NCBI GenBank assembly: GCA_034669905.1
Contig: JAXMOL010000023.1
Coordinates: 32,001 to 96,000 of the forward strand
DNA from: Candidatus Hydrogenedentota bacterium
GTDB taxonomy: Bacteria > Hydrogenedentota > Hydrogenedentia > Hydrogenedentales > JAEUWI01
DNA: 64,000 nucleotides
Direction: 5' to 3'
Part shown: positions 1 through 4,577 of the stretch, in pieces
How the letters are laid out: the number at the start of each line of letters is the position of its first letter
Position numbering within the stretch: position 1 is the stretch's first letter
The notes under the pieces: generated by a model
Databases searched by the model: none
Told to the model about the DNA's origin: nothing
What the model saw: only the letters and a program-made list of their open reading frames with translations
Translations under genes and position numbers: made by a program

Positions 1-169
1 CCGCATTCAGAAGATTGTGGAAGAAGAAGACCCCTACAAGCCCCTGAGTGATCAGAAGATCGCGGACCTCCTCAAGAAGGAGGGCACCAATGTGGCGCGT
101 CGCACGGTGACCAAGTATCGCGAAGCCTTGAACATCCCCGCTACGACCAAGCGAAAGCAGTACAAGTAA
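1..169 (+). CDS. rpoN: RNA polymerase sigma-54 factor, C-terminal fragment (truncated by window edge)
   Basis: Frame from nt 2 reads RIQKIVEEEDPYKPLSDQKIADLLKKEGTNVARRTVTKYREALNIP...YK-TAA; contains the RpoN box ARRTVxKYRE. Confidence 0.97.
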   Translation, partial: RIQKIVEEEDPYKPLSDQKIADLLKKEGTNVARRTVTKYREALNIPATTKRKQYK

Positions 170-3815: not shown

Positions 3816-3844
3816 AGTATAAGCACTTCTAACGGAGAAGACAA
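3816..3844 (-). promoter_or_regulatory. Sigma-70-type promoter for pilC
   Basis: TTGTCT-N17-TATACT on the minus strand, ~125 nt upstream of the pilC start. Confidence 0.6.
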
Positions 3845-3931: not shown

Positions 3932-4076
3932 AAAAAAATAGGTAAAGAAAGCGACCCACAATGTTGGCTACCAATCGGCGCATCGACAGGATGCTCGACC
4001 GTAACCCGGGCTTGGTGGCAGCGTCAACATTGTTACATGTCTAGCCTGACACTGCGGGCTGCTTTCGCTTACCCAT
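3932..4076 (-). ncRNA. Putative ~145-nt rod-shaped (6S-like) non-coding RNA
   Basis: 5' and 3' ends pair over 31 bp (9+6+11+5), 12/10-nt central bubble, irregular apical stem, U7 tail; 8 G.U pairs fix the minus strand; 5' end coincides with the predicted sigma-54 +1. Confidence 0.75.
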
Positions 4077-4086
4077 GACTATACAA

Positions 4087-4103
4087 AGCAAGAGTCAGGC
4101 CAA
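4087..4103 (-). promoter_or_regulatory. Sigma-54 (-24/-12) promoter
   Basis: TTGGCCTGACTCTTGCT (GG-N10-GC; consensus TGGCAC-N5-TTGCW); predicted +1 = 4076. Confidence 0.7.
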
Positions 4104-4190
4104 AACGCACCATTCAGGAAAAACAACCTCAAACACCTGTAAAATAACAGTTTAGCATTGCCGACCTGCGACGACCTTTAGTAGGAATGC

Positions 4191-4252
4191 GTCAATAGTT
4201 TGCCGCCGTGACAAACCTTTGACTGTCGGACCGACAAATCGTCAGTTTCGAC
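4191..4252. promoter_or_regulatory. Candidate enhancer (UAS) sites for a sigma-54 activator
   Basis: GTCAATAGTTTGCC (4191), GACAAACCTTTGAC (4210), palindrome TGTCGGACCGACA (4224-4236), GTCAGTTTCGAC (4241); 115-175 nt upstream of +1. Confidence 0.45.
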
Positions 4253-4310: not shown

Positions 4311-4577
4311 CTACCTCCCGGGAGCCCCTACCGGATGGTAGAAATTCCACAATCGAAGAACCACTACAGCGAAGGCGATGCAAACCGCGATCCCGACCAC
4401 GAAGGCTATCAGGAGCCCGCGCCACCCAAAACCGCTCGCCCCTTCCGAGGGACCCTTGAGCTTCTTAAAGAATTGGGATGTATTTTCTTCCATCGATGCG
4501 CGGAACATCTTGATCCAAATCATGAACGCAACTATCCCCACGATGATGAGGATCTCTTTAAATCCTATCGTTATCAA
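4311..4577 (-). CDS. Small two-helix membrane protein, hypothetical
   Basis: 88-aa ORF (TTG start) with two hydrophobic segments. Confidence 0.5.
   Translation of the reverse strand: MITIGFKEILIIVGIVAFMIWIKMFRASMEENTSQFFKKLKGPSEGASGFGWRGLLIAFVVGIAVCIAFAVVVLRLWNFYHPVGAPGR

Follow-up and report, generated by a model that had tools for sequence, protein, structure and literature searches.

A conserved structured RNA with a predicted sigma-54 promoter in front of pilC in Candidatus Hydrogenedentota

Introduction

Several bacterial RNAs act by titrating a protein. GlmY and CrcZ, which titrate RapZ and Hfq, respectively, are driven by sigma-54 and an activator, and RsmY and CsrB titrate CsrA. Known sponge RNAs usually repeat a motif.

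By regulation, the RNA closest to the one reported here is Pxr of Myxococcus xanthus, which is 108 nt long, has a predicted sigma-54 promoter with an enhancer and lies next to an NtrC-like gene, according to the accessible text of PMC5684412 and PMC5568312. In Pseudomonas, PilR and sigma-54 activate pilA in response to pilin levels, and unannotated PilR-responsive genes may encode regulatory RNAs, as stated in the accessible part of PMC6058289. 6S RNA is described in the corresponding part of PMC8876501 as a rod of ~200 nt with a central bubble, the 3′ part of which mimics a −10 element; a truncated 6S-1 consisting of the bubble and short helices only still works in vitro.

The window (the whole 64,000-nt stretch of DNA analysed here) belongs to G000, the 7.4-Mb genome of a Candidatus Hydrogenedentota bacterium. 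An original prediction placed a rod-shaped RNA of 6S-like architecture on its minus strand upstream of pilC. In this study, we followed up this prediction in G000 and in related genomes of the phylum. The element is a real structured RNA, and it has apparently escaped description: the literature on Hydrogenedentota RNA motifs, as represented mainly by open-access text, describes no such RNA, while supplements of motif screens may list it.

Results

A single-copy structured RNA in front of pilC

The element, its end and the gene that follows it are located in the window as listed here.

3932..4076, minus strand: structured non-coding RNA of ~140–145 nt (RNA nucleotide n is window position 4077 − n)
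3932..3938, minus strand: U7 tract, the predicted 3′ end, directly after the closing stem P1
2472..3692, minus strand: pilC, encoding a type IV pilus platform protein of 406 aa (PF00482, E 3e-65)

The sequence, the coordinates and the U7 tract at the end agree with the original prediction. Folding of the reverse complement of 3932–4076 gave a minimum free energy of −60.4 kcal/mol (z = −4.48), a stability above chance that 0 of 200 shuffles equalled. The plus strand folds too (−53.5 kcal/mol, z = −3.95), and the orientation was thus taken from the promoter, the U tract and the G.U pattern and not from energy alone. No conserved open reading frame was found in the RNA in alignments of relatives; a small peptide was considered and rejected because no reading frame opened by the AUGs at nt 1, 39 and 47 is preserved in the relatives.

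Rfam contained nothing credible for the element at E ≤ 10, 6S RNA (RF00013), the family named in the original prediction, included, and nothing reached the gathering score across the whole window. No family, riboswitches included, matched the RNA or 10 related candidates. The small SRP RNA model (RF00169) had no match at the element, and the SRP RNA of this genome lies on another contig.

Searches with blastn and nhmmer found the element once in the 7.4-Mb genome. Its ends form an imperfect inverted repeat of ~26 bp, as might be expected of a MITE, a REPIN or another DNA-level inverted repeat. Such an origin is nevertheless extremely unlikely, considering the one copy in 7.4 Mb, the one place per genome in relatives (extra matches were the opposite strand), the G.U-compatible changes, the invariant core and the exact fit to the predicted +1. 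Dispersed copies, which the original prediction regarded as the mark of a MITE or REPIN, were found neither in this genome nor in the relatives.

Distribution in the phylum

The RNA was found in all eight other genomes of the genus (9/9 with G000). It lies directly before pilC in seven of these relatives, and a contig break separates the two in G007. The promoter, the start and nt 47–74 are invariant in the nine sequences, while the flanks do not align. A covariance model, R1, built on eight genus sequences and run on 133 genomes, found one copy outside the genus (28.2 bits, E 0.002): that of G012, a member of another genus, which likewise lies before pilC and behind a sigma-54 site. Two further motifs of the G012 copy resemble UGCCACCA: a second one in its separate terminator hairpin (L049:1440-1500, minus strand) and a third in its P3 arm.

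A pilC orthologue is present in 123 of the 135 genomes of the phylum, and the region before it was read in 104 of these 123, three of the regions being incomplete. In each of three family f10 genomes, a sigma-54 site is accompanied by a long closing stem and a core that hardly varies; this second family repeats the pattern of pairing kept in the closing stem and sequence kept in the core. R1 aligns one f10 sequence with its UGCCA in register, though weakly (13.1 bits, E 0.01 in 1.8 kb), and a second model, R2, scores all three f10 genomes, two of which are in its training set. Five further genomes (G023, G025, G030, G036 and G042) combine a promoter, a closing stem and GCCA with fold z-scores of −3.3 to −5.5; neither R1 nor R2 matches them significantly, and their homology is by position only. 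In G021, a promoter is present but the fold (z = −0.14) is no better than those of shuffles, and this genome was not counted. The RNA thus occurs in 13 genomes by model and in five more by position, and the cores of the more distant candidates have little in common beyond GCCA.

All model-supported copies are at the pilC locus, and no copy away from pilC was found by the models or by DNA searches of relatives. A DNA search with the G048 RNA recovered only its two genus relatives above noise. Pattern scans covered a wider range of sequences. In metagenomes, at least 117 stretches matched, 80 of which were scored with R1 and all 117 of which were inspected; one is a true copy, with an RNA identical to that of G004. 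Two matches came from viral sequences, and R1 scores neither. Seven of the 20 matches in GTDB scored as the RNA (five titled Hydrogenedentota or Hydrogenedentales, two without a taxon), and a weak match in Verrucomicrobia was rejected. Most named records with the RNA are titled Hydrogenedentota or Hydrogenedentales. We also rejected the other matches of a 13-mer search of 133 genomes, which look like coding chance (20 inspected), and eight weak R2 matches (E 3e-4 to 0.08), which lie in open frames without a promoter or a closing stem.

Secondary structure

Comparison of relatives and folding energies favours a predicted three-way junction made up of the following parts.

4049..4076, minus strand: closing stem P1, 5′ strand (nt 1–28); sequence varies, pairing kept
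3938..3964, minus strand: closing stem P1, 3′ strand (nt 113–139); pairing kept across relatives
4026..4041, minus strand: hairpin P2 (nt 36–51); pairing probability 0.82–1.0 in 8/8 sequences
4007..4025, minus strand: junction strand J2/3 (nt 52–70), invariant and mostly unpaired, with the GCCA motif; the presumed binding surface
3966..4006, minus strand: apical arm P3 (nt 71–111), predicted, containing an invariant G as a bulge and, at nt 88–92, a loop of 5 nt

P1 comprises 26 bp between nt 1–28 and nt 113–139, five of which are G.U pairs; compensatory changes occur at five aligned pairs, and four relatives have 2–3 mismatches. Both-sided changes were found at three pairs of P3 among eight sequences, and the 3′ side of the junction is a single unpaired base. 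In the consensus fold of the eight genus sequences, 95.5% of cells pair and 4 of the 33 pairs change on both sides; the covariation score was unmatched in 500 shuffles, a figure that is not a probability because the sequences are related. Both the homologues before pilC and the covariation that the original prediction called for were found. Adding G012 brings the pairs with both-sided changes to 30 of 44, a count that comes from a model-fitted alignment and is driven mostly by G012 alone; in the same model-fitted way, four of the five P2 pairs are altered on both sides in G012.

The core behaves differently from P1: what selection has preserved is the pairing in P1, where the sequence varies, and the sequence in the core. 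Nucleotides 47–74 are unchanged throughout the genus (9/9), 16 of the 17 positions at nt 52–68, within J2/3, are kept in G012, and UGCCA is in register in G048. The P3 loop may pair with nt 52–55 as a pseudoknot. This is a hint only: of four changes over six candidate pairs in nine sequences, one disrupts a pair and the other three preserve or add one.

The rod of the original prediction fared less well. Its closing stem of 31 bp stands in its outer part, which is P1, while the inner GGCUA/UAGCC helix is unsupported, one of its pairs being broken (C.A) in 6/8 sequences. The 7-bp helix UGUUGAC/GUCGAUG has a pairing probability of 0.00 in seven of eight sequences and 0.10 in the other; in relatives it amounts to six invariant pairs and one break, and four of its pairs may survive as a pseudoknot. 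The eight G.U pairs claimed as a mark of RNA-level selection divide accordingly into five in P1 and three in this unsupported helix. Instead of a two-sided central bubble, the 5′ strand forms a hairpin (probability 0.82–1.0) and the 3′ strand lies within the apical arm. Forcing the rod costs 4.4–16.3 kcal/mol relative to the junction in seven of eight sequences; the two tie in G005.

Comparison with 6S RNA

The RNA and 6S RNA share a long, imperfect closing stem formed by the 5′ and 3′ ends. They differ in length (~140 versus ~200 nt), in architecture (a junction versus a rod with a two-sided bubble) and in the sigma-54 promoter found here. RF00013, which does not match the element, finds a separate canonical 6S RNA at a different locus of G000 (59 bits), and canonical 6S RNA is present in 96 of the 135 phylum genomes, including 9 of the 18 that carry the RNA or a candidate. 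The predicted likeness to 6S is therefore not borne out, and the RNA is probably not a 6S RNA.

It might still serve as a second, short 6S-like RNA whose binding to RNA polymerase, possibly to the sigma-54 form, acts as a feedback. The long closing stem beginning at +1 and the A/C-rich 5′ strand, a feature strongest in G030 and G042, would suit such a role, as would the activity of the truncated 6S-1 in vitro (accessible part of PMC8876501), the tie of the rod with the best fold in G005 and the position of rpoN 3.8 kb away. We consider it very improbable, however: besides the absence of an RF00013 score and the canonical 6S RNA elsewhere, there is no 3′ bubble strand, the rod helices are unsupported, and GCCA complements the −24 element with no −12 match at the right spacing and at a varying distance from P1. 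The neighbourhood of rpoN also speaks against it; rpoN adjoins pilC in G017 as well, but the surroundings of pilC at five other RNA-bearing loci showed no rpoN. In G000, rpoN ends at the start of the window (window 1–169; G000:C23:30745-32169, plus strand) and converges on the gene after pilC.

A sigma-54 promoter and an upstream box related to that of pilin genes

Two features precede the RNA.

4087..4102, minus strand: sigma-54 (−24/−12) promoter with +1 at 4076; TTGGC-N7-TTGC invariant in 9/9 genus sequences
4190..4224, minus strand: two tandem enhancer-like boxes (4224–4209 and 4205–4190), related to the pilin-gene box and partly conserved in the genus

The site at 4102–4087 is taken to be a sigma-54 promoter from the general sigma-54 consensus. 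Its predicted +1 is 4076, the first paired base of P1, as originally claimed; in the eight relatives, the AUG starts 1–2 nt further from the −12 C. The genome encodes rpoN and 25 sigma-54 activators.

Six pilin genes of G000 have sigma-54 sites with a TGACR-N5/6-YGTCA-type box 112–161 nt upstream. The accessible text of PMC6058289 and PMC6211767 contains no PilR box consensus, and so the box matrix was derived from the pilin promoters of G000. This matrix matches the RNA promoter (p 0.001) at a distance similar to that in the pilin genes, and it gives p ≤ 0.012 in 6/6 promoters tested in family f1. Outside f1, it falls below 0.05 in one of eight candidates (G023) and in 8 of 14 pilC promoters of family f5. 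A PilR-like activator, named from gene order alone with no PilR model among the listed hits, is part of a pilB-pilT-kinase-regulator cluster, which in G000 contains no pilC; in the outgroup G133, this cluster has pilC as its last gene, right behind the regulator.

Since the RNA promoter carries the pilin-gene box, the RNA is likely under the control of the PilR-like activator in its own family. It would share with the PilS/PilR regulon a sigma-54 promoter as well as the upstream box of the pilin genes, and differ in that its product is a structured RNA located before pilC. All five tested genomes without the RNA keep the PilR-like gene, which makes the RNA accessory and dispensable for the pilus system. 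From these arrangements we infer that an old PilR/sigma-54 promoter of pilC may now make the RNA in one group of families.

Some observations on the surroundings are added here. At least six major-pilin-like genes of G000 (C2:214025, C6:189228, C55:32983, C71:27179, C16:126657 and C3:120838) each have a sigma-54 promoter and the shared box, and four non-pilin genes (on C8, C15, C1 and C45) are also preceded by this box and a sigma-54 site; together these genes are a candidate PilR regulon. Just upstream of the enhancer, an ORF for an 88-aa membrane protein with two helices (window 4311–4577, minus strand) has a relative in G005; it matches no Pfam or NCBIfam family, and its Atlas hits, only 0.81, are to hypothetical proteins.

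Terminator-like ends and the promoter of pilC

The best NCBIfam model for pilC is PilC, below its cut-off. The gene appears to have a promoter of its own.

3816..3844, minus strand: sigma-70-type promoter of pilC, downstream of the RNA; recurs in 15/15 regions tested

One match to the sigma-70 consensus in 1.1 kb is at chance level (0.8 expected), and the support for this promoter is its conservation. In family f1, a terminator-like feature precedes the pilC promoter in 6/6 regions tested, with two designs: a U tract right after P1 in four, and a separate hairpin with a U run in G003 and G012. Among the complete genus sequences, seven of eight have the U tract after P1. Support for the original proposal of a discrete structured RNA, which would be transcribed from the sigma-54 promoter, comes from conservation, covariation, the single copy, the separate pilC promoter and, within f1, the terminator-like end. 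Outside f1, eight candidates showed no terminator after P1, and the RNA may thus be a leader of pilC there.

This raises the main rival reading, in which a pilC transcript driven by sigma-54 has the RNA as its cis-acting leader or attenuator; we regard it as rather doubtful. The constant position of the RNA at pilC suits a cis role, and 21 of 41 regions read in family f5 have a sigma-54 site before pilC but not the RNA; the candidates of other families that lack a terminator point the same way. Against a leader stands the promoter that pilC has of its own. As an attenuator, P1 and the U tract would terminate transcription unless an early helix (nt 22–30 with nt 51–59) delayed P1; where the U tract is absent, the stem would protect the 5′ end of the mRNA. 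Partial transcripts do form this competing helix in G000 (−16.1 versus −19.3 kcal/mol), but it is weak (about −5 kcal/mol) in G003 and G012, both of which have a separate downstream terminator, and only 6 of 17 sequences give p ≤ 0.05 for the 5′ hairpin of the alternative fold. A 5′ GNRA hairpin was also considered and was not robust. In f5 genomes (L095, L097, L105, L107, L112, L267 (g63), L103, L104 (g22)), the long leader between the sigma-54 site and pilC has other conserved hairpins, which are unrelated to the RNA.

Candidate mRNA targets and protein partners

The invariant, unpaired strand of 13–19 nt resembles a seed, and sigma-54/NtrC-driven small RNAs such as Pxr exist (accessible text of PMC5684412 and PMC5568312). 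The RNA could accordingly be an Hfq-independent base-pairing sRNA that uses its C-rich junction strand as an mRNA seed. When 5,281 predicted start regions were scanned, however, the best energies (−30.1, −27.9 and −24.8 kcal/mol at ranks 1, 5 and 20) were within the range of six shuffled seeds, in a crude scan that used our own gene calls in one genome and took no account of accessibility. Two target scans, 10-mer matches included, yielded no target, pairing to the six pilin leaders was weak, and Hfq is absent from all 135 phylum genomes. We judge a base-pairing role unlikely.

The resemblance to Pxr lies in the restriction to a lineage, the predicted sigma-54 promoter with an enhancer-like box, significant here in f1 and in G023, and the probable tie to an NtrC-like two-component system; a conserved −24/−12 element at +1 and an rpoN gene are found here, as expected of the Pxr type of RNA. 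Pxr itself consists of three stem-loops in series beside its activator gene, downstream of pxrK and pxrR, whereas the fold and neighbours here are a long stem closing the 5′ and 3′ ends, a position before pilC and a pilin-type box. No Rfam match links the two RNAs, which are set apart by description and not by direct alignment.

Like GlmY and CrcZ, the RNA is proposed to be driven by sigma-54 and to titrate a protein; it has no array of motifs. Their partners are unlikely to be its own. Apart from Hfq, RapZ is missing from every RNA-bearing family (0/15 f1, 0/6 f10, 0/4 f8 and 0/1 f12 genomes), and TROVE (Ro60) was not found in G000, so that membership among GlmY, CrcZ or Y RNAs was rejected within these scopes. 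CsrA is present in G000, but the RNA there contains no GGA, in place of the several GGA motifs in loops expected of a CsrA sponge, and this class was rejected as well. RapZ-like proteins do occur in 50 of the 135 genomes, only in families f3 and f5 and two outgroups. The gene beside that of CsrA is presumably FliW-like.

A possible small-molecule aptamer

Another explanation is that the core binds a small molecule as an aptamer, for instance c-di-GMP in a new fold, and acts as a switch or a store. The invariant junction, the bulged invariant G and the possible pseudoknot of 4–6 bp (three of four changes compatible) would fit this, and PilB in this organism has an MshEN c-di-GMP motif above cut-off. 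The RNA loosely resembles the c-di-GMP-I riboswitch in short motifs, but this likeness failed when examined with RF01051, which does not score the locus and has only a sub-threshold match on another contig. In Bdellovibrio, a stand-alone riboswitch RNA has been proposed as a store of c-di-GMP, a proposal called speculative in the accessible part of PMC3627812. This merRNA is likewise a structured RNA near motility genes, but it is 445 nt long and contains a recognisable riboswitch (PMC3627812, same part). With no Rfam riboswitch matching the RNA or the 10 candidates, and with distant cores that share little beyond GCCA, an aptamer is quite improbable. Separately, the gene directly before pilB (L272:719-3349 in G000:C3; L273:8680-10305 in G133) joins a PilB-type N-terminal region, with MshEN above cut-off in G133, to a DnaA-like ATPase domain.

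Discussion

We tentatively prefer, at somewhat less than an even chance, the reading that this is a stand-alone RNA with an accessory role in the pilus regulon and with an invariant core that binds and titrates a putative partner protein. A PilS/PilR-like system would switch the RNA on through sigma-54 together with the pilin genes. P1 would be a protective scaffold and, with the U tract, a terminator; the core would be compact, perhaps pseudoknotted, and its folded, invariant surface would bind and titrate the partner. Selection on pairing in P1 and on sequence in the core suggests a scaffold that displays a binding surface, and the same pattern recurs in a second family. The terminator-like ends before the pilC promoter in f1 (6/6), the promoter of pilC itself (15/15), the significant pilin-type box in f1 (6/6) and the place of the PilR-like gene in the pilB-pilT cluster, directly before pilC in G133, are all consistent with this reading.

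The protein-binding role was reached by elimination, with no mRNA target scoring above six shuffled seeds, no Hfq in 135/135 genomes and no conserved ORF, and is tentative. Several points count against it: GCCA occurs once in the core of most copies, where known sponges usually repeat their motif; the eight candidates outside f1 lack a terminator after P1, and in seven of these eight the pilin-type box is not significant; all model-supported copies are at pilC, which fits a cis role; and five genomes keep the PilR-like gene without the RNA. A particular form of titration, in which an RNA transcribed by sigma-54 polymerase under PilR would bind either the activator itself or the sigma-54 holoenzyme and dampen the pilus regulon, seems to us very unlikely; if true, it would extend a 6S-like principle to enhancer-dependent transcription.

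The range of the RNA is narrow, 13 genomes by model and five more by position. Its fold and core are not in Rfam, and a partner or ligand would thus be new. Being short and having natural variants, it lends itself to in vitro tests that require no culture of the host. If the preferred reading is true, the sensing of pilin by PilS/PilR leads to an RNA output, in a phylum in which no Hfq was found among 135 genomes and the usual decoy partners are missing.
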